Shown here piece by piece: positions 438 through 8,723 of a DNA stretch of 9,049 nt (the stretch's first letter is position 1; each line of letters begins with the position of its first letter). The notes below the pieces were generated by a model that did not search any database, was not told the DNA's origin, and saw nothing but the letters and a program-made list of their open reading frames with translations. Source of the DNA: Nanobdellota archaeon (GTDB taxonomy: Archaea > Nanobdellota > Nanobdellia > Pacearchaeales > GW2011-AR1); the NCBI GenBank assembly GCA_038044405.1, contig JBBTAC010000013.1, positions 1 through 9,049 on the forward strand. The letters are read 5' to 3'. Both the position numbers and the translations under genes were made by a program.

Positions 438-519
438 GCCCAGATGGCACAATGGTACTGCGACAGATTGCTAATCTGTTTTCCTTCGGGATATCCAGGT
501 TCGATTCCTGGTCTGGGCG
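438..519 (+). tRNA. tRNA-Ser (anticodon GCU), type II with long variable arm, no encoded CCA
   Basis: Hand-folded. Acceptor 438-444/512-518 (GCCCAGA/TCTGGGC). D stem 447-449/459-461 with GG at 454-455. Anticodon stem 463-467/475-479 (ACAGA/TCTGT). Loop TTGCTAA gives anticodon GCT at 470-472. Variable arm 480-494 has a TCC/GGA stem. T arm 495-499/507-511 with loop TTCGATT. Discriminator G519. Confidence 0.93.
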
Positions 520-608: not shown

Positions 609-1193
609 ATGAAGAAACCAATGGGTCTTAAAAAAGAACAAACGTTTTATATAGAAACTGCTAGGCAAAAAGTTCTGCAGCTTTTCTACACATTTCCAGA
701 CAAAGAATTTAGTCTAAGTGATATAGCCAAGGAAGCAGGAGTAGCAAAAGCTAATTTGGGAGTTATTTTGGGCTCTTTAGAAAGTGCAGGGTTAATTAAA
801 ATAGAAAAGCTAACAAAGATTTGGCGTATCAGGGCGAATCAAGAAAACTGGATTTTTAAGAGAACTAAAATAGTATACAATCTTAATTTCATATACCAAA
901 GCGGATTGGTCGAGTTTCTTAATGAAACTTATCAGAATCCAAAATCTATTATTTTATTTGGCAGTTTTAGAAAAGGAGAAGATACATCTACTTCTGATAT
1001 AGACATAGCAATAGAATCGGAGATGGCTAAAGATTACAAAATACTAGGTCTAAGACAGCTCACCGATTTTGAAAAAACCATAGGTCGAAATATTCAAATT
1101 CATGAATTTAATCGCAAGTCCATAGATGATGGTTTATTTAATAGTATAGCAAATGGTATCGTCTTGATGGGATTCTTGGAGGTCAAAAAATGA
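609..1193 (+). CDS. wHTH-fused minimal nucleotidyltransferase (MNT/MntA-like, Pol-beta superfamily), putative antitoxin, 194 aa
   Basis: The C-terminal half has the classic ILFGSFRKGEDTSTSDIDIAIE motif (G-S-x9-11-D-x-D). The N-terminal ~90 aa looks like a winged HTH (FSLSDIAKEAGVAKANLGVILGSLESAGLIKIEK). There is a 4-nt ATGA overlap with the next gene. Confidence 0.8.
   Translation: MKKPMGLKKEQTFYIETARQKVLQLFYTFPDKEFSLSDIAKEAGVAKANLGVILGSLESAGLIKIEKLTKIWRIRANQENWIFKRTKIVYNLNFIYQSGLVEFLNETYQNPKSIILFGSFRKGEDTSTSDIDIAIESEMAKDYKILGLRQLTDFEKTIGRNIQIHEFNRKSIDDGLFNSIANGIVLMGFLEVKK
1178..1183 (+). promoter_or_regulatory. Shine-Dalgarno GGAGGT for the HEPN gene
   Basis: Perfect GGAGGT 6 nt upstream of ATG 1190, inside the 3' end of the NTase gene. 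Confidence 0.6.
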
Positions 1194-1612
1194 ACTTAGA
1201 TTTTACAAAACTTATTAAAGAGAAAAGATTGCGAGCAAGAGAAACTAACAAAGATAAAATAAAAAGTTTAATTGATTCTGCTAAAAATAATGTAAGCGTA
1301 GTTTCTTCTTTACCTTTAAATGAGAAAAATGCTACCGTCATCTTTAGGGAAGTGTACGAGTCCATTCGACAGCTTGGCGATGCACGTTTTTGGATTCTGG
1401 GTTACGAACCTTTAGATCATGGAATTAGCTTAGATTCACTAAAAGGGCTCGATATTAAAGAAAAAGTCAAGCTAAACTATTTGGAAAGATTCAAACAAAT
1501 ACGTCACGATGCTAATTATAGAGGATTCAATGTTTCCGCAATGCAAGCTAAAGAAATATTAGATTTTTGGAATATTTGCACTCCTGAAATAATAAATCTT
1601 CTCAAAAAATAG
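1190..1612 (+). CDS. HEPN-domain protein (HepT-like putative toxin), 140 aa
   Basis: All-helical-looking 140-aa protein immediately downstream of, and overlapping, an MNT gene. LERFKQIRHDANYRG contains R-x5-H (RFKQIRH) and the R..a.Y signature I associate with PF05168-type HEPN. A trailing A.e.l helix (AMQAKEILDFW) is also typical. Confidence 0.7.
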   Translation: MNLDFTKLIKEKRLRARETNKDKIKSLIDSAKNNVSVVSSLPLNEKNATVIFREVYESIRQLGDARFWILGYEPLDHGISLDSLKGLDIKEKVKLNYLERFKQIRHDANYRGFNVSAMQAKEILDFWNICTPEIINLLKK

Positions 1613-1657: not shown

Positions 1658-2248
1658 TTATTTCTTAGTCTTCTTCTCTTCTATTCTCTGGACGTCAGCT
1701 ATATAATGAAATCCTGACGCTGTTCCCACAATCCCTAAAATTATTGAAAGAGGAAGCGCAAGATTTTGCCAGGCGGGATAATATATGCTTAACATTAAAG
1801 CTGGAAGTGCAAAGCCTTGAGCGAATGTAGTTACTTTTGCAACATACCTTGCATTAGGAAATCCTTTTCCAGAAAAGAATGCAACAATTGCAGATGGCGC
1901 GCTAATTATTTCTCTAGACATGATTAATAATAATTGTATTCCATGAAGAATATTTAATTGATCGCGAATTCCAAATACGACAAAGAAAGCAAACGCTGTA
2001 CAGATCCATAAAAATCTATCTGCAACCATATCTGCTTTTCTGCCAAAATCATTAACAAGATTATATTTGCGTGCAATTCTTCCGTCAAACCAATCTGTAA
2101 TAGCCGCAATTGCAAAAACAGCAACAATATATTTTATAGAACGATTTGTAATTATCATATAAACAACAACAAATGTAAGAACTATTCTAGCAAGGTTAAG
2201 AAATGTCGGAACATTAATAATATTTTCTTTTTTCTTTTTTCTTTCCAT
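1658..2248 (-). CDS. CDP-alcohol phosphatidyltransferase family protein (archaeal polar-lipid head-group synthase), 196 aa
   Basis: Perfect family motif D-G-x2-A-R-x8-G-x3-D-x3-D in DWFDGRIARKYNLVNDFGRKADMVAD. Multi-pass hydrophobic profile and a typical N-terminus (NVPTFLNLARIVL). The head-group specificity cannot be read from the sequence. Confidence 0.9.
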   Translation of the reverse strand: MERKKKKENIINVPTFLNLARIVLTFVVVYMIITNRSIKYIVAVFAIAAITDWFDGRIARKYNLVNDFGRKADMVADRFLWICTAFAFFVVFGIRDQLNILHGIQLLLIMSREIISAPSAIVAFFSGKGFPNARYVAKVTTFAQGFALPALMLSIYYPAWQNLALPLSIILGIVGTASGFHYIADVQRIEEKKTKK

Positions 2249-2269
2249 CTACTTTCATAAACAAGAAGG

Positions 2270-2276
2270 TTTAAAA
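2270..2276. promoter_or_regulatory. Single TTTAAAA/TTTTAAA box shared by divergent tRNA-Met (+) and CDP-alcohol transferase (-)
   Basis: Lies -31 to -25 from the tRNA 5' end (2301), and 22-28 nt upstream of ATG 2248 on the other strand. It is the only strong TATA-like element in the 52-nt divergent spacer. Confidence 0.4.
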
Positions 2277-2300
2277 GTTCTTCTTTTTCTCTATAGTTAT

Positions 2301-2375
2301 AGCGGGATAGACCAGCCTGGAGTGGTCGCGAGGCCCATAACCTCGAGGTCGGAGGTTCAAATCCTTCTCCCGCTA
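2301..2375 (+). tRNA. tRNA-Met (anticodon CAU), probably the initiator (A1:U72); no encoded CCA
   Basis: Hand-folded. Acceptor AGCGGGA 2301-2307 / TCCCGCT 2368-2374. D stem GACC/GGTC 2310-2313/2324-2327. Anticodon stem CGAGG/CCTCG 2329-2333/2341-2345. Loop CCCATAA gives anticodon CAT at 2336-2338. 5-nt variable loop. T arm GGAGG/CCTTC with loop TTCAAAT. Discriminator A2375. Confidence 0.9.
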
Positions 2376-2386
2376 TTAATAATAAA

Positions 2387-2959
2387 ATGGCAAAAAGACT
2401 TTTCATAATCCATGGTTGGGGAGGAAGTCCTAAAGAATTATTGCATGAGAATTTAAAAAAACGTTTTTCCAAAAAAGGATTTGAAGTTTTTGTTCTAGAA
2501 ATGCCTAATACAAATAATCCTAAAATAGAAGAATGGGTTCAATATCTAAATAAAATTGTAGGAAAATCAAATGAAGACGATTATTTTATAGGTCACAGTA
2601 TAGGTTGCCAAGCAATTATGAGATATGTAGAAAGTCTTAATGAAAATAAGAAAATCAGAGGTTGTATTTTTATCGCTGGCTGGTTTAAATTAGCTAATAT
2701 GGAGTCTAAGGAAGAAGAAAAAATAGCAGAGCCCTGGATAAAAAATAAAATAAATTTAGCTAAAATAAGAAAAATGATAAAAGAAATAATAGTTTATTTG
2801 TCAAGTAATGAATATTATGGATTTGTAGAAGAAAATTCAAAGATTTTTCATGATAAGTTGGGTGCTAAAGTGATTATTGAAAAAGACATGGGACATTTTA
2901 CAGATGAAGAAGGTTTAGAAAAAATCGCTAAGTTCGTTGATAAATTATCTTTTCAATAA
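2387..2959 (+). CDS. Alpha/beta serine hydrolase of the YdeN/RBBP9 family, 190 aa
   Basis: LFIIHGWGGSP, MPN..NP....W, nucleophile elbow IGHSIGCQAIMRYVE and C-terminal GHFTDEEG all align by eye with B. subtilis YdeN as I remember it. Confidence 0.82.
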   Translation: MAKRLFIIHGWGGSPKELLHENLKKRFSKKGFEVFVLEMPNTNNPKIEEWVQYLNKIVGKSNEDDYFIGHSIGCQAIMRYVESLNENKKIRGCIFIAGWFKLANMESKEEEKIAEPWIKNKINLAKIRKMIKEIIVYLSSNEYYGFVEENSKIFHDKLGAKVIIEKDMGHFTDEEGLEKIAKFVDKLSFQ

Positions 2960-2996: not shown

Positions 2997-3665
2997 ATGT
3001 TAATAATGGGGGTTGATGATTCTGGAAGAGGGCCTATAATAGGGCCTATGATTTTAGCAGGAGTATTAATAGATAAAAAAAGTGAAGAATTTTTGAAAAA
3101 GCAGGGAGTAAAAGATTCAAAGCAAGTCTTGCATCCTAAAAGAATGCAATTAGCGAGAATTATAAAAGAGCTGGCAGTTCATTATTTTATTGTAAAAGCA
3201 TATCCTGAAGAAATTGATGGTATGATAAAAAAGGGAACAAATTTGAATACTCTGGAAGCAATGAAATGTGCAGAAGTCATAAACGAATTAAATAATAAAA
3301 AAGATAAGATAACTGTTGTAGTAGATTGTCCATCAACAAATAGGTCTGCCTGGAAAAATACTTTATCTACATTTATAGACAATGAAGAAAATTTAAAAAT
3401 ATTGTGCGAGCATAAGGCGGACGTTAATCATGTTGTAGTATCTGCTGCATCAATATTAGCAAAAGTTGCGAGAGAAGAAGAGGTTGAAGAGTTAAAAAAG
3501 AAATATGGGAATTTTGGCTCTGGATATCCTGCTGACCCCTTAACAAAGAAATTTCTTGAAGAACATGGAGAGAGATTAAAAAATTCAGGAATATTTAGAA
3601 GAAGCTGGCAAACTTGGAAAAGATTATACCCAGAAAAAGATCAAGCAACTTTAAGAGGTTTTTAA
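2997..3665 (+). CDS. rnhB: Ribonuclease HII, archaeal type, 222 aa
   Basis: GVDDSGRGPIIGPM, VVVDCPS, HKADVNHVVVSAASILAKV, GSGYPADP and the C-terminal QATLRGF match archaeal RNase HII (Thermococcus/Pyrococcus type) almost motif for motif. Confidence 0.93.
   Translation: MLIMGVDDSGRGPIIGPMILAGVLIDKKSEEFLKKQGVKDSKQVLHPKRMQLARIIKELAVHYFIVKAYPEEIDGMIKKGTNLNTLEAMKCAEVINELNNKKDKITVVVDCPSTNRSAWKNTLSTFIDNEENLKILCEHKADVNHVVVSAASILAKVAREEEVEELKKKYGNFGSGYPADPLTKKFLEEHGERLKNSGIFRRSWQTWKRLYPEKDQATLRGF
3655..3659 (+). promoter_or_regulatory. SD-like GAGGT for the vWA gene
   Basis: Lies 5 nt upstream of ATG 3665, inside the last codons of rnhB. The stop and start overlap as TAATG. Confidence 0.45.
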
Positions 3666-4798
3666 TGAAAAAGGTAATTAAAAATACAATAAAAAAAAAT
3701 AGAATAATTAGGGAAAAAGAAAGTGTTTCAGACATATTAGTAGTTCTATTATTTATCATTCTAGGGATTATGGCTCTTGGAATAATATTTTTAATAGCCA
3801 AAAATTTCATAATAGAAAATAAAGAAATATCCGAAGTAAAAGTCAGATTTTTTACTGAAACTATAGAAGTTACAGGGTCAGAATTTAACCCCTTCGACCT
3901 TTCTCAGATGAATATGACCATAACCAAAAAATCTGGTAAAGTGGAGTTAGTTGGGACAGAGACTACTACAAAAATAATTTCCCCAGTCATAGATGTTATA
4001 TCTGTAGCAGATTTATCAAGCAGCATGGCTGGACCTAAATTAACTGCTTCAAAGGCAGCCAATATAGCCTTGATAAATTCAATATTAACTAGAAATGAGA
4101 ATCGAATGGGATTAGTTGCGTATAGTAGTATTGTAAGTCCAGGAAACTCTTCTGATTTAACAAGAGATTCTAATTTATTAAATAATATAGTAAATAATTG
4201 GACATTAGGATCAGGCACTAGAATATGCAAAGGCATTGAAGAAGCTATGAAAAAATTTCAAGTACAATCTTCACAAAGCAGTACAAAGATAATGGTTGTA
4301 ATGAGTGATGGACAAGCAACTAGAGATTGTACAGGAGGCAATAATGCGGCGAAAGCAAGGCAAGATGCAATTGATGCCGCCTGTATTGCTAATAGTACAT
4401 TAGATAATTTAGTAATTTATTCCATAGGTTTTAATCTCCAAGGAGATCCACTTGCTCAAAATACTATGAATCAAATAGCTCAATGCGGAAACGGTAAATA
4501 TTTTGAAGCCGCACAAATTAGTGATTTAATCGACATTTATGATTTGGTTGTTGAGGAAATTGAAAGTAAAATTTTTAAATCATTAAAAGTAATTGGGGGA
4601 TTAAAAGTTGTATTCTATAATAGCACGGATTCTTATTCAGAATTAATAACCGACGTGCCTTTAGAGATATTCGAAACAAAAAAATATCAATTTTATAATA
4701 GAATAACTAATCTAGAAAGAATAGAAATTTATCCTGTTATTACAACGTCGTCTGGAAAAGAAGTAATTGGTCCTTTAATTTGGATAAAAGAGTTTTAA
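3665..4798 (+). CDS. Membrane-anchored von Willebrand factor A (vWA) domain protein with complete MIDAS, 377 aa
   Basis: N-terminal basic stretch plus one TM helix (ILVVLLFIILGIMALGIIFLIA). MIDAS elements are DLSSS (4010-4024), GSGTRICKGIEEA and VVMSDGQAT. A ~100-aa beta-rich C-terminal region has no motif I recognise. The start is chosen at 3665 (TAATG coupling plus SD) rather than at the ORF-track ATG 3614. Confidence 0.8.
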   Translation: MKKVIKNTIKKNRIIREKESVSDILVVLLFIILGIMALGIIFLIAKNFIIENKEISEVKVRFFTETIEVTGSEFNPFDLSQMNMTITKKSGKVELVGTETTTKIISPVIDVISVADLSSSMAGPKLTASKAANIALINSILTRNENRMGLVAYSSIVSPGNSSDLTRDSNLLNNIVNNWTLGSGTRICKGIEEAMKKFQVQSSQSSTKIMVVMSDGQATRDCTGGNNAAKARQDAIDAACIANSTLDNLVIYSIGFNLQGDPLAQNTMNQIAQCGNGKYFEAAQISDLIDIYDLVVEEIESKIFKSLKVIGGLKVVFYNSTDSYSELITDVPLEIFETKKYQFYNRITNLERIEIYPVITTSSGKEVIGPLIWIKEF

Positions 4799-5226
4799 TC
4801 TTCTCTTTCGGCCAATAGCTCAGAAAATTCATCAGTTAATTTTTGTGTGTCTTCAAATAATTCTACCTCTCCTTTCGATACATCTCCTATTTCATAACCA
4901 GGAGCAACAAAGAAATCAATGCCCTTTACTTTATTGCGTTCTATATTTGCAAAATCGCTAAAACAATTAAAAGGAGCCATGCCACAACCATGTTCTCTAT
5001 ACTTTCCTCCAGTATATATTGCACCGTTAATTTCTATTGAAGTTAATCTTGGATAATTATGGGCAATATCTCTAAAATTGAATCCAACACTTTCATTTCT
5101 CTTTATACTATATTGTATTTGAGAAGACAATCCTCTTGATAGATATACAAATAATTCTCTGATTTCATCTTCTCCTAATCCTCTGCCAAATTCAACATGG
5201 GAAATTTCCCTTAATGTTTTTTGCAT
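4795..5226 (-). CDS. Hypothetical soluble protein, 143 aa, acidic C-terminus
   Basis: Clean ORF with a TATA-like box 24-29 nt upstream. Composition matches the neighbouring genes. No family recognised; the only notable strings are YREHGCGMAPFNCF and FFVAPGYEIGD. Confidence 0.55.
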   Translation of the reverse strand: MQKTLREISHVEFGRGLGEDEIRELFVYLSRGLSSQIQYSIKRNESVGFNFRDIAHNYPRLTSIEINGAIYTGGKYREHGCGMAPFNCFSDFANIERNKVKGIDFFVAPGYEIGDVSKGEVELFEDTQKLTDEFSELLAERED

Positions 5227-5359: not shown

Positions 5360-5686
5360 TTAGGGAAAAAAGCCAAAGAAGAGGATCATGATGAATGCAT
5401 TTATTGGTATCCAGATACACAAGATCAGCAAGTTGCCGATTAAGAGCAGACTATCAAATCTACCATTTTTTGGGCGAATAATTGAAAGGATTGGAATGAA
5501 CACCAATATTATAGTAACATAAAAGAACCAAGAGGCGAGGAAGAAAGCACCCAGAATTATGAAAAAAAGTCCTAGTTGTATCAATAGGCAAATGAGGGTC
5601 GTAATGGCGATCGGCATTCGTAGCCGTTGACTGAAGCGAGTGCGCGGTGCTGACGTAGATATAGGTTGAGTAGTTGCGAGTTTCAT
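5360..5686 (-). CDS. Hypothetical small membrane protein, 108 aa, about 3 TM helices
   Basis: Polar Arg-rich N-terminus (TSAPRTRFSQRLR) followed by three long hydrophobic segments. The palindromic TATA-like TTTATAAA at 5712-5719 lies 26-33 nt upstream of ATG 5686. No family recognised. Confidence 0.5.
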   Translation of the reverse strand: MKLATTQPISTSAPRTRFSQRLRMPIAITTLICLLIQLGLFFIILGAFFLASWFFYVTIILVFIPILSIIRPKNGRFDSLLLIGNLLILCIWIPINAFIMILFFGFFP

Positions 5687-5779: not shown

Positions 5780-8647
5780 TTAATTTATCTTCAGACTCAA
5801 AATCTTAGAAATACCCTCATGCATACTAACGCCGTATAATGCATTTGAATTATTGATTATGGCGTCATTATGAGTTATAACAATGTATTGTCCTGATTTC
5901 ATATACTGATTTAACAGCGCAGACAGTCTTTCTGAATTTCTTTTATCCAAAGCGGCATCAATTTCATCAAAGACGTAAAAGTGATATGGCTTATGTTCCT
6001 GAATAGCAAATAATAAAGAGAGTGCAACCATAGTCTGTTCCCCGCCAGACAATGAAGTAACATCAAAATACTTTCCTTTAGCTAATTTTACAACAATATT
6101 AACTCCTGCTGAAAAAATATCTTCCTTATTTTCAATTTCCAAATAAGCTATTCCTTTAGTGGACAATTTAGAGAAGTTCTCGGAAAATATAGTATTTATA
6201 GCCCTGAATGTCTTCATAAAAGTCTTAGATTTTTTATTATCTATACTTTCTATAATCTTCATAATATCATCTTTTTCTTTCTGCAATGTATTTACCTTTT
6301 CTTGAACGGCATCATATTCTTTCTTTACCTCATCATATACTTCGAGGGCTCGCATATTAATTGAGCCTATATTCTGCATCATTTCCTGCGACCTTTTCAG
6401 TTTTTCCTCTAAAACATGAATGCTTTCTTGAATTAATTCTATGCCTGCGAATTCAGATAACTCCATTTGCACTGATTCGTGTTCTGCATCTAATTTTGCC
6501 TTGCCTATTCTAAGATAGTTAATCTGGTCATCGAGCTGGCGCATCTCTTCTCTTGTTTGAGATAAATTAAGACTCTCTTCTTGCATCTCTTTTTGCATTT
6601 TATCTCTTAAAGAAAACATTTTATTAAATTTAATTTCCATTTCCTCTTCTTTTTTGCTTAAAACTAATAGTTTTTCAGATTTACCATCGATACTCGTAAA
6701 TATATCTTCAATTTTAGATTCTATGTCAGAAAGATCTTCCCCGCTTCTTTTTATTATGTTGCCCATATTTTCAAGCTCTCTTTCCTTATAGAGAAGAGTC
6801 GTATCAATATCTTCAATTGTTCTTGAAGAGACTTCTTCTATATCCAGCATCTTATTTTCATACTGCTCTTCGATAATAGATAATTCAGAAGATTTATTTT
6901 CAAGATTTTTTATTTTTTCTTGAATTTCAATTATTTCTTTCTTTAAAGTTGCTTCTTCATTAACAAGCCCAGATAATCTTTCTTTCCTTTCCTTTATGTT
7001 TTTGTGGCTTATCAGTTCTAATTCCCATTTGGAAATTTTCTTTCCAATATCATTAATTTCATTATTAAGGAGATTCTTTTTAGTTTTAAAATTATTTAAT
7101 TCTAAAACAGCTTTATCTTTATTTTCTCGAGCTATTTTTATTCTAGATTCAACATCAGAATGAACATGGGCTTTATGTTCTTCTGTTATTTTTGTCTGGC
7201 ATAAAGGACAGACATCTAGTTTTTCAATTTTTGATTTTATAACGCTTGAATTTGCAATCTCTGCATCCGCAACTGAAAAAATCTTCTCATTAGACAACTC
7301 TTCAGAAATTATTAATTCTAATTCTTTTCTTTTTTCCAATAATTTATCTCTAAAAGATTTAATTGCTTCAGAACATTTTATATATTCTTCATAGTCCAGA
7401 TTTGAAGATTCCTCTTCTATTCTATCTACAATCAATTTTCCTGTAGTGTTTACATTTGTCAATTGCCTTTCTTTTTCCTTAATTCTATCTCTCAATGCAT
7501 GCAACTCTGTTTTTACTGTAAATAGCCTCTTTCTTTCTTTCTCTATTTTTCCTAATTCATCTTTCTTTTTCCTCAATTCCTCTGATTTTTTTGCAACAAG
7601 AGGAGACTGTTCTCTCAAAGATTCAATTTCTTTTTTTATTTCTGGAATAGATTTAGAAAGCTCCTGTATTCTTCTTTTAATTTCAATCTGTCTATTTTCA
7701 TAACTTTCTTTTCTTACTTTCAAACCCTCTAATTCAGCTTTCAGATTAGTGGTTTCGTTATGCAAGGCATCTTGTTCTACACCTGTTGCTTGTTGAATGC
7801 CTTTGTTTATCTCTTCAATTTTAATATTTAATTCGTTTATTTTAGTTTGTTTAGAATTCATCTTAACTGTTATTTTGCCCTTGTCTTCAGTCTTATCAGT
7901 AATAGAATTAAAAATCGCAAGAACTTCTTTTTCCTTTTCTTTTGATTTCTTATTTAAAATTGACGCCTTTATTCTTTTAATAGTCAATTCAGTGTCTTTA
8001 TAGCGTTTTGCTTCTGCTCTTTCTCTTTCCAAATTTTTTAAATAAGAAGTTCTTTCTCTTAAGATTGTAGATATCTCTTTTAATCTTTCATCGGTTTTTG
8101 CTAGTTCATGCAAGGATTTTTCTTTTCGTGCCTCATATACCGATATACCTGCAACTTCTTCAACAATTTTTCTTCTTTCTTCTGGATGCATTCGAACTAT
8201 AGATTGAATTTGACCTTGCATTATTAAATTAGCCCCATAAGGGTCAATACCTGCTTGTGCAAGCATTTCTATAACTTCTGATCTAGTTTTTGCCTCTTCA
8301 TTTATTTTATAGATTCCTTGGCCATTAGACCTAACAATCCTCTTTAAATGCACTTCATCATTATCTATCGCAAATCCTCTATTTGAATTGTCAAAAACAA
8401 GTTCAACAAATGCTTCTTTAGAAGGCTTAACATATTTTGAACCCATAAAAATTAGGTTTTTGGCCTTTGCAGCCCTCATTGACTTAATAGATAGTCTGCC
8501 TAGGACAAATAATATTGCATCAGCAATGTTTGTTTTTCCAGAGCCATTTGGCCCAACAAATAAATTTATCTCTTTATCAAAAGGGATTTCTGTTTTCTTG
8601 GCAAAACTTTTGAATCCCTGCATAACCATCTTTTTGATATAGGTCAT
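5780..8647 (-). CDS. smc: SMC-family ATPase, atypical: hinge-less, with a central CxxC zinc-hook-like motif, 955 aa
   Basis: N-terminal head: MQGFKSFAKKTEIPF, Walker A GPNGSGKT (8531-8554), Q-loop MQGQI, then PEERRKIVEEVAGISVYEARKE. C-terminal head: LSGGE (6038-6052), Walker B FYVFDEIDAALD, ITHN, YGVSM. About 600 aa of K/E-rich heptad-like sequence lies between them, with no globular hinge. Confidence 0.9.
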   Translation of the reverse strand: MTYIKKMVMQGFKSFAKKTEIPFDKEINLFVGPNGSGKTNIADAILFVLGRLSIKSMRAAKAKNLIFMGSKYVKPSKEAFVELVFDNSNRGFAIDNDEVHLKRIVRSNGQGIYKINEEAKTRSEVIEMLAQAGIDPYGANLIMQGQIQSIVRMHPEERRKIVEEVAGISVYEARKEKSLHELAKTDERLKEISTILRERTSYLKNLERERAEAKRYKDTELTIKRIKASILNKKSKEKEKEVLAIFNSITDKTEDKGKITVKMNSKQTKINELNIKIEEINKGIQQATGVEQDALHNETTNLKAELEGLKVRKESYENRQIEIKRRIQELSKSIPEIKKEIESLREQSPLVAKKSEELRKKKDELGKIEKERKRLFTVKTELHALRDRIKEKERQLTNVNTTGKLIVDRIEEESSNLDYEEYIKCSEAIKSFRDKLLEKRKELELIISEELSNEKIFSVADAEIANSSVIKSKIEKLDVCPLCQTKITEEHKAHVHSDVESRIKIARENKDKAVLELNNFKTKKNLLNNEINDIGKKISKWELELISHKNIKERKERLSGLVNEEATLKKEIIEIQEKIKNLENKSSELSIIEEQYENKMLDIEEVSSRTIEDIDTTLLYKERELENMGNIIKRSGEDLSDIESKIEDIFTSIDGKSEKLLVLSKKEEEMEIKFNKMFSLRDKMQKEMQEESLNLSQTREEMRQLDDQINYLRIGKAKLDAEHESVQMELSEFAGIELIQESIHVLEEKLKRSQEMMQNIGSINMRALEVYDEVKKEYDAVQEKVNTLQKEKDDIMKIIESIDNKKSKTFMKTFRAINTIFSENFSKLSTKGIAYLEIENKEDIFSAGVNIVVKLAKGKYFDVTSLSGGEQTMVALSLLFAIQEHKPYHFYVFDEIDAALDKRNSERLSALLNQYMKSGQYIVITHNDAIINNSNALYGVSMHEGISKILSLKIN
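7199..7210 (-). other. CPLC motif (Cys480-x-x-Cys483), putative zinc hook at the coiled-coil apex
   Basis: Minus-strand codons TGT CCT TTA TGC. The position is residues 480-483 of 955 (midpoint 478). The context is KLDVCPLCQTKITEEHK. Confidence 0.6.
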
Positions 8648-8668
8648 ACAAGAATTAGAAAATCGCTC

Positions 8669-8675
8669 TATTTAA
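8669..8675 (-). promoter_or_regulatory. TATA-like box (minus strand TTAAATA) for smc
   Basis: Lies 22-28 nt upstream of ATG 8647 on the minus strand. Confidence 0.35.
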
Positions 8676-8723
8676 GGATTTTTGACAATTAACTTAGTTC
8701 CATTATTCTGCAAAATAACAAGG

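Follow-up and report, generated by a model that had tools for sequence, protein, structure and literature searches.

The hinge is the constitutive dimerisation and DNA-binding domain in SMC proteins (structural maintenance of chromosomes), and an SMC gene that encodes no hinge raises the question of what, if anything, holds the arms of its product together. Such a gene, encoding a 955-aa protein, lies in contig JBBTAC010000013.1 of a Nanobdellota archaeon (assembly GCA_038044405.1; ~32% G+C), which was analysed over its whole length of 9,049 nucleotides, hereafter the window. The original prediction, made from the letters of the DNA, was that this protein has SMC-type heads and that, where the hinge should be, a zinc hook of the Rad50 kind joins them. 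Our analysis supports this central claim, and the checks on head identity, on the assembly and on conservation of the CxxC motif all came out in its favour. We consider it likely that the protein is the SMC, the prokaryotic condensin ATPase, of a Pacearchaeota-type DPANN archaeon, its hinge replaced by a Rad50-type hook that dimerises through zinc.

A Pfam search found no match to SMC_hinge (PF06470) in the 955-aa protein, and the same search finds this domain in the relatives P0152, P0153 and P0204 at E=1e-33 to 1e-35. The protein had been described as short by about the size of a hinge; indeed, its closest hinge-bearing relative has 1142 aa, a difference of 187 aa. There is no glycine between residues 404 and 534, in agreement with the predicted lack of a Gly-rich globular centre, and the CPLC motif lies, as had been proposed, 2-5 residues from the midpoint of the chain. 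AlphaFold2, run on a 111-sequence alignment, gave a full-length model (mean predicted local distance difference test score, pLDDT, 76.9; ~90 around the apex) in which two ~305-residue helices are separated by a non-helical 14-residue loop carrying CPLC. No globular central domain is modelled, and the turn falls exactly at the CxxC, where the coiled coil had been expected to fold back. Low-confidence breaks at residues 346-350 and 608-613 look like an elbow.

The modelled apex resembles the zinc hook of Rad50. Taken alone, an 84-residue apex fragment (residues 440-523) was modelled as a helical hairpin (pLDDT 94.4), for which a Foldseek comparison with 350,542 PDB chains returned 1l8d_A, 1l8d_B and 5gox_A as the top three matches (probability 0.82-1.00, template modelling (TM) score up to 0.73). 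These are the zinc hooks of P. furiosus Rad50 (1l8d) and human Rad50 (5gox). The Pfam model Rad50_zn_hook (PF04423) matches 26/29 family apex fragments, the best at E=5.3e-7. The resemblance to a Pyrococcus hook, pointed out in the original prediction, proved to be real, as CPLCQTKITEEH aligns with CPVCGRELTDEH of P. furiosus Rad50 with identical spacing. By its Pfam and fold matches, the apex is predicted to be a Rad50-type hook.

The motif is conserved well beyond the window. A word-indexed search returned 7,340 homologues at E<1e-10, and D-x-CP[LVM]C-x7-H stands at the same place in 120/120 of the best of these (58-66% identity), which are named as Nanoarchaeota or Pacearchaeota 'chromosome segregation SMC'. 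Among 50%-identity representatives from an exhaustive search, hook-type proteins of 946-1023 aa extend down to 37% identity, and CPxC is present in all 19 full-length representatives of this length class over the same range. One limited scan found the gene in at least 28 GTDB species-representative genomes; CPxC is present in 27/27 copies covering the central region, the 28th (L032) being a C-terminal third only and hence not scorable. Hook-type proteins contain only 3-7 cysteines in total, and conservation of the CPxC position is not a matter of chance. Walker A and CxxC stand 448 aa apart in 113/136 homologues, and CxxC and LSGGE 386 aa apart in 107/136; these fixed arm lengths fit the 'tuned arm' constraint described for an engineered Smc (PMC5344682).

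A CxxC motif at the tip of a hairpin could serve another purpose. Together with H491 and H494 it may make up a C2H2-like zinc knuckle within one chain, with no role other than to stabilise the turn, apex dimerisation being absent or otherwise achieved, in which case the protein would be a head-engaging dimer without a closed apex. Across 111 close homologues H491 is invariant and H494 is conserved in more than 90%; in a PDB sequence search with the hook profile, a CCHC-type zinc finger from a virus (2l7x, E=0.62) comes first, and hookless derivatives nested inside the clade indicate that the lineage can do without a hook. However, H491 is replaced by Y, E or A in four of the distant hook-type representatives and H494 by E, K or I in many, and only CPxC is universal, so that four intramolecular ligands are not found family-wide. 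Moreover, H491 is the counterpart of a histidine in the P. furiosus hook CPVCGRELTDEH, and the best fold and Pfam matches are Rad50 hooks rather than zinc fingers. We judged the C2H2 site unlikely in view of the variable histidines. With two cysteines as the only universal candidates, four ligands would need two chains, as in the shared site of Rad50.

The 955-aa protein has true SMC-type heads. Every SMC-type string that had been quoted for the two head halves was found in the translation (FKSF at residues 12-15, PEERRKIVEEVAGISVYEARKE, ITHN and YGVSM among them), and Walker A, R58, the Q-loop, signature, Walker B, D-loop and H-loop are all invariant in 111 aligned close homologues. Pfam recognises SMC_N (PF02463; E=5.6e-49, 167 bits), and the two best NCBIfam models are the prokaryotic SMC equivalogs TIGR02169 (503 bits) and TIGR02168 (493 bits), whose cut-offs of 729 and 567 bits are missed because each model aligns as two separate segments that leave out its hinge positions. 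In PDB sequence searches, the heads of P. yayanosii and P. furiosus Smc were matched at E=1e-101 to 4e-85, eukaryotic SMC1-4 at 1e-52 to 1e-27 and Rad50 heads at 8e-16 or weaker; residues 1-242 align with the P. yayanosii Smc head 5xei. A structural comparison of the full-length model ranks condensin Smc4, 5xei and 4i99 above Rad50 (TM to target 0.70-0.89), the head fold giving 0.89 against P. furiosus Smc 4i99. The invariant motifs and these matches identify the heads as SMC rather than Rad50, and from their sequence they look catalytically intact.

These scores bear equally on two hook-bearing families to which the protein might belong. The archaea-specific SMC-related proteins (ASRPs: ClsN/coalescin, Sph1/Sph2) are archaeal members of the SMC superfamily that carry a zinc hook (PMC9389158) and are known as organisers of chromosome compartments. 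The ASRP model NF045487 does match at E=2e-32, but it scores 112 bits where 300 are required, and covers only parts of the protein (three stretches, the best at residues 640-925), the model having 593 positions against the 955 aa found here. The SMC equivalogs score 4.5 times higher. ASRPs are ~600 aa in length with divergent heads, whereas this protein is much closer to canonical SMC; the hook clade falls among canonical archaeal SMCs, of which a hinge-type Woesearchaeota member is also encoded near RNase HII. Membership of the ASRPs is thus highly improbable.

We give still less credence to the reading that the protein is an ordinary Rad50/SbcC, an ATPase of DNA double-strand-break repair, under an SMC annotation. 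Such a protein would explain a CxxC hook in the middle of a coiled coil and the missing hinge, and an antiparallel coiled coil that bears CPxC at its tip, spaced as in P. furiosus CPVCGRELTDEH, is what Rad50 hooks display (PF04423; 1l8d, 5gox, 6zff). NCBIfam Rad50 models do align over the full length (residues 4-949), but the best reaches 117 bits against a cut-off of 700; such scores are 6-10 times below the cut-offs and 4 times below those of SMC. The PDB contrast between Smc heads (1e-101) and Rad50 heads (8e-16) runs the same way, and together these two results refute the identity. Furthermore, its closest relatives, at 38% identity, are SMCs with a hinge, the arms are of SMC length with SMC-like discontinuities, and ten loci with precomputed Pfam annotation are without an Mre11 or metallophosphatase gene.

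That assembly or gene calling deleted a hinge-coding segment from a short 9-kb metagenomic contig, as had been envisaged at the outset, is refuted to near certainty by the identical gene in ENA assembly ERZ1292625 (Hain_H41, groundwater metagenome) and the identical protein in an independent Logan assembly of run ERR3858120, by the 7340 homologues at E<1e-10, by the same architecture in 27/27 GTDB genomes covering the centre (including contigs of 150-640 kb) and by arm lengths conserved to the residue.

Two kinds of length variation are seen among hook-type proteins. Variation between 946 and 1082 aa is confined to the tail past the C-terminal head, which extends for 89 to ~215 residues after LSGGE; the 955-aa protein is a minimal form, without a C-terminal tail. 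In addition, ~8% of close hook-type SMCs, of 1,480-1,575 aa, have their Walker A P-loop interrupted by an intein (Pfam Intein_splicing and LAGLIDADG_3), which begins immediately behind residue ~35 (P0004, P0010, P0029, P0056, P0061, P0073, P0078, P0099 and P0106; loci L016, L022, L037 and L038).

To place the hook type among SMCs, a tree of the head halves was built by neighbour-joining (111 representatives, 343 columns, Kimura distances, 200 bootstraps, unrooted). In 185/200 bootstraps, 19 hook-type proteins and four of ~800 aa are set apart, as a single clade, from 88 hinge-bearing or other SMCs. A clean split of all CPxC proteins failed, as the four hookless short proteins nest inside, and it is on adding them that the figure of 185/200 is obtained. 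After the hook type, the next-best representatives are proteins of 1,070-1,200 aa with Pfam SMC_hinge, and the nearest hinge-type protein by full-length score is the Woesearchaeota SMC P0152, at 38% identity. Tree and gene position provide moderate evidence of orthology with the hinge-bearing SMC of sister lineages, the synteny with RNase HII being loose. Given that the hinge is universal elsewhere and the hook type forms a single clade, the simplest reading would be one derived hinge-to-hook swap in the ancestor of the Pacearchaeota-type DPANN group. The idea of an SMC/Rad50 evolutionary intermediate, which accompanied the original prediction, does not survive: the hook clade is single and derived, among hinge-bearing archaeal SMCs, and occupies a similar position near RNase HII.

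The hookless members of the clade are four SMC_N representatives of ~780-805 aa from Pacearchaeota (P0139, P0140, P0142 and P0148), which do not group together and in which neither a hinge nor a central CxxC was found. This type includes PIU75690.1 from a Pacearchaeota metagenome-assembled genome. In pairwise alignments, ~130-190 hook-type residues, comprising the hook and flanking arm, are reduced to 6-20 in P0139 and P0142, and ~300-420 residues are replaced by ~125-225 unalignable ones in P0140 and P0148. The gene of P0278, an 804-aa member of the P0139 cluster (P0139/P0278: L008 6279-8693; L009 6069-8483), keeps the synteny of the hook type (Ser hydrolase, RNase HII, SMC ... AP endonuclease). 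It seems that the hookless types lost the hook and flanking arm independently of one another, and an SMC without any apex dimerisation element is outside what the standard ring picture explains. A fuller history, which we advance tentatively and hold to be possible rather than probable, is that the hook SMC is the only SMC of Pacearchaeota-type DPANN archaea, that its hook was captured, probably from a Rad50 gene, and that sub-lineages then deleted the hook together with 60-150 residues from each arm.

If SMC heads are indeed joined through a zinc hook, each chain would fold back into an antiparallel coiled-coil arm of ~305 residues, with an ABC-ATPase head at one end and the CPLC loop at the other. 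Two chains would join tip to tip, one Zn2+ being held by four cysteines (C480 and C483 of each chain), and the dimer so formed would be constitutive and V- or rod-shaped, just as with a hinge. The heads would engage and disengage with ATP, acting on chromosomal DNA as in Smc-ScpAB, and entrapment of DNA or loop extrusion would lead to chromosome organisation and segregation; we infer both this role on the chromosome and the involvement of a kleisin. Zinc-mediated joining of the tips is expected because an engineered equivalent works: B. subtilis Smc(Zh), in which the P. furiosus Rad50 hook replaces the hinge, supports normal growth on rich medium and still requires correctly phased arm lengths (Burmann et al. 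2017, PMC5344682). In fission yeast, a Rad50 that carries the MukB hinge works as well, hook and hinge being interchangeable in Rad50 (Tatebe et al. 2020, PMC6969161). Hook-type SMCs have exactly the architecture of Smc(Zh), and their arm lengths are essentially invariant. In contrast to both laboratory constructs, they are natural, ancient and widespread in an archaeal lineage.

Several observations weigh against this reading. Zinc binding and intermolecular dimerisation are proposed by analogy with Rad50 and with the engineered chimera. The Foldseek E-values for the apex are weak (0.1-0.2), as expected for a small hairpin, and similarity of this kind is that of a short motif. The hook fragment of the 955-aa protein itself scores just under the PF04423 cut-off (E=7.2e-5; 23.0 against 24.3 bits), and the search of PDB sequences with the hook profile places the Rad50 hook second, with an E-value (0.69) that is not significant, a match used as an alignment only. 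The phylogenetic placement is weakened by its dependence on an unrooted neighbour-joining tree of 343 head columns. Deletion of the hook in several lineages inside the clade may mean that apex dimerisation is less essential than supposed. Finally, a ring closed by a kleisin is assumed, and neither ScpA, ScpB nor another conserved candidate partner was found within ±10 kb in 33 non-redundant loci.

The search for a kleisin relied on a profile of the ScpA sequences of B. subtilis, G. stearothermophilus and S. pneumoniae, the B. subtilis sequence having been confirmed against PDB entries and the other two taken from the aligned regions of PDB matches. Nothing better than E=0.07 was returned by hmmsearch from 1,900 open reading frames (ORFs) in 39 loci (648 kb, ±10 kb), no ScpA is present in the precomputed Pfam annotation of ten loci, and clustering of all neighbouring ORFs yielded no conserved kleisin-like candidate. 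Supplementary tables on DPANN (PMC7414124) hold no information on Pacearchaeota ScpA or ScpB. No Mre11 or Metallophos protein was found among the ORFs of the window or the called genes of loci L001-L010, loci L011-L038 not having been scanned. The reported absence of adjacent scpA, scpB and mre11 genes is therefore accurate for the window, that of a kleisin holding for ±10 kb only. As smc and scpA are unlinked also in Thaumarchaeota and Methanococcales (PMC7055376), a kleisin missing from the vicinity says little.

The gene neighbourhood is otherwise recurrent. In 29/39 loci (25/33 non-redundant hook-type and hookless loci) the RNase HII gene is no more than 10 kb away from that of the SMC, and it is found also at a hinge-type Woesearchaeota SMC locus and at an ~800-aa-type locus. 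Other genes that recur in the 33 loci, none of them kleisin-like, encode a ~418-aa secreted Ig-like protein (27/33), DUF7557 (24/33), AP endonuclease 2 (21/33) and a DnaG-type Toprim protein (18/33).

Compared with the hinge-type SMCs of Smc-ScpAB (Pyrococcus 5xei and 4i99; Woesearchaeota P0152), the hook type shares all head motifs including R58 (at 38-40% identity to those of DPANN), an extended antiparallel coiled coil that is broken at elbow- and joint-like points, a similar RNase HII neighbourhood and the same annotation. It differs in having a 14-residue CPxC loop where the ~190-aa hinge (PF06470) would be, arms that are each ~25 residues shorter, an equivalog score below cut-off (503 against 729 bits) and no kleisin gene within ±10 kb.

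What the hinge contributes beyond joining the arms is debated, DNA binding, a DNA entry gate and obstacle bypass having all been considered. The only direct test so far is the engineered B. subtilis Smc with a Rad50 hook, which works; evolution appears to have arrived at this chimera too and to have retained it throughout a large and diverse archaeal lineage comprising thousands of sequences. If the hook and hookless proteins are functional condensins, then the hinge, and possibly any apex dimerisation, would be dispensable for an SMC in nature, and reduced DPANN genomes might run an SMC machine that is kleisin-less or otherwise re-wired. With the hook type one could examine, in a system found in nature, which functions of the hinge can be dispensed with and what limits arm phase, and its hookless derivatives would allow one to ask whether closure of the apex is needed at all.

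We found no description of a natural hook-bearing SMC in the literature searched for 'zinc hook' or 'zinc-hook', a search whose coverage excluded most subscription journals, and as far as we found the hinge-to-hook architecture had previously been made only artificially in the laboratory. Databases label the hook-type proteins simply as SMC, and surveys that collect SMCs by their hinge or Rad50s by their hook will misfile them. The 'hinge-less' SMC of marine Actinobacteria-like bacteria, which likewise has SMC-type heads and a coiled coil, is explicitly without CXXC (Sussfeld et al. 2025, PMC12153180); it is closer to the hookless ~800-aa derivatives than to the 955-aa hook-type protein.

Positions of the hook-type SMC gene, its parts and the other features of the window
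Feature	Position (nt)	Strand	Remarks
Hook-type SMC gene, 955 aa	5780..8647	-	Complete; ATG 8645-8647, stop 5780-5782
Short 5' region	8648..8690	-	TTAAATA box ~25 nt before ATG; sequence read directly
N-terminal SMC ATPase head half, residues 1-168	8144..8647	-	Walker A, R58, Q-loop
Walker A GPNGSGKT, residues 32-39	8531-8554	-	
Invariant R58	8474-8476	-	
Q-loop MQGQ, residues 143-146	8210-8221	-	
Outgoing (N-terminal) coiled-coil arm helix, residues 169-474	7226..8143	-	AlphaFold2 secondary structure, pLDDT
Elbow-like break in outgoing arm, residues 346-350	7598-7612	-	
Predicted zinc-hook loop EKLDVCPLCQTKIT, residues 475-488	7184..7225	-	Arm apex
CPLC (C480, C483), residues 480-483	7199..7210	-	Proposed Zn ligands; invariant in close family
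Returning (C-terminal) coiled-coil arm helix, residues 489 to ~800	6248..7183	-	Starts TEEHKAH
Partner elbow-like break in returning arm, residues 608-613	6809-6826	-	
C-terminal SMC ATPase head half, residues ~801-955	5783..6247	-	Signature, Walker B, D-loop, H-loop
Signature LSGGEQ, residues 866-871	6035-6052	-	
Walker B FYVFDE, residues 890-895	5963-5980	-	
H-loop H926	5870-5872	-	
RNase HII	2997..3665	+	Conserved neighbour; positional marker, no proposed partner
143-aa ORF	4795-5226	-	3' of SMC gene, same strand; no family
108-aa ORF	5360-5686	-	3' of SMC gene; hydrophobic, membrane-like
ORF running off contig end	8753-9049	+	Divergent from SMC gene
MntA-like gene	609-1193	+	Winged helix-turn-helix and nucleotidyltransferase
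140-aa ORF	1190-1612	+	No family match; 4-nt overlap with MntA-like gene
tRNA-Ser(GCT)	438-519	+	
tRNA-Met(CAT)	2300-2376	+	
ORF overlapping tRNA-Met gene	2182-2472	-	Probably spurious

Upstream of the SMC gene, the TTAAATA box could be an archaeal TATA box, and at this distance from the ATG the transcript might be leaderless. The divergent ORF on that side starts MKTKKLINLLALSLLPILGC, a lipoprotein-type signal peptide with a lipobox-like cysteine, and no homologue of it was found in the other loci. Of the two ORFs 3' of the SMC gene, the 143-aa one recurs in four loci only and the 108-aa one was seen in the window alone, and hence neither is a conserved SMC partner.

At the far end of the window, the MntA-like protein is so called for its likeness to MntA, an antitoxin found in type VII toxin-antitoxin systems (NF047752, E=3e-9). 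The 140-aa ORF beside it may encode a divergent HepT-like partner, and the pair recurs in two further loci (L012 and L034).

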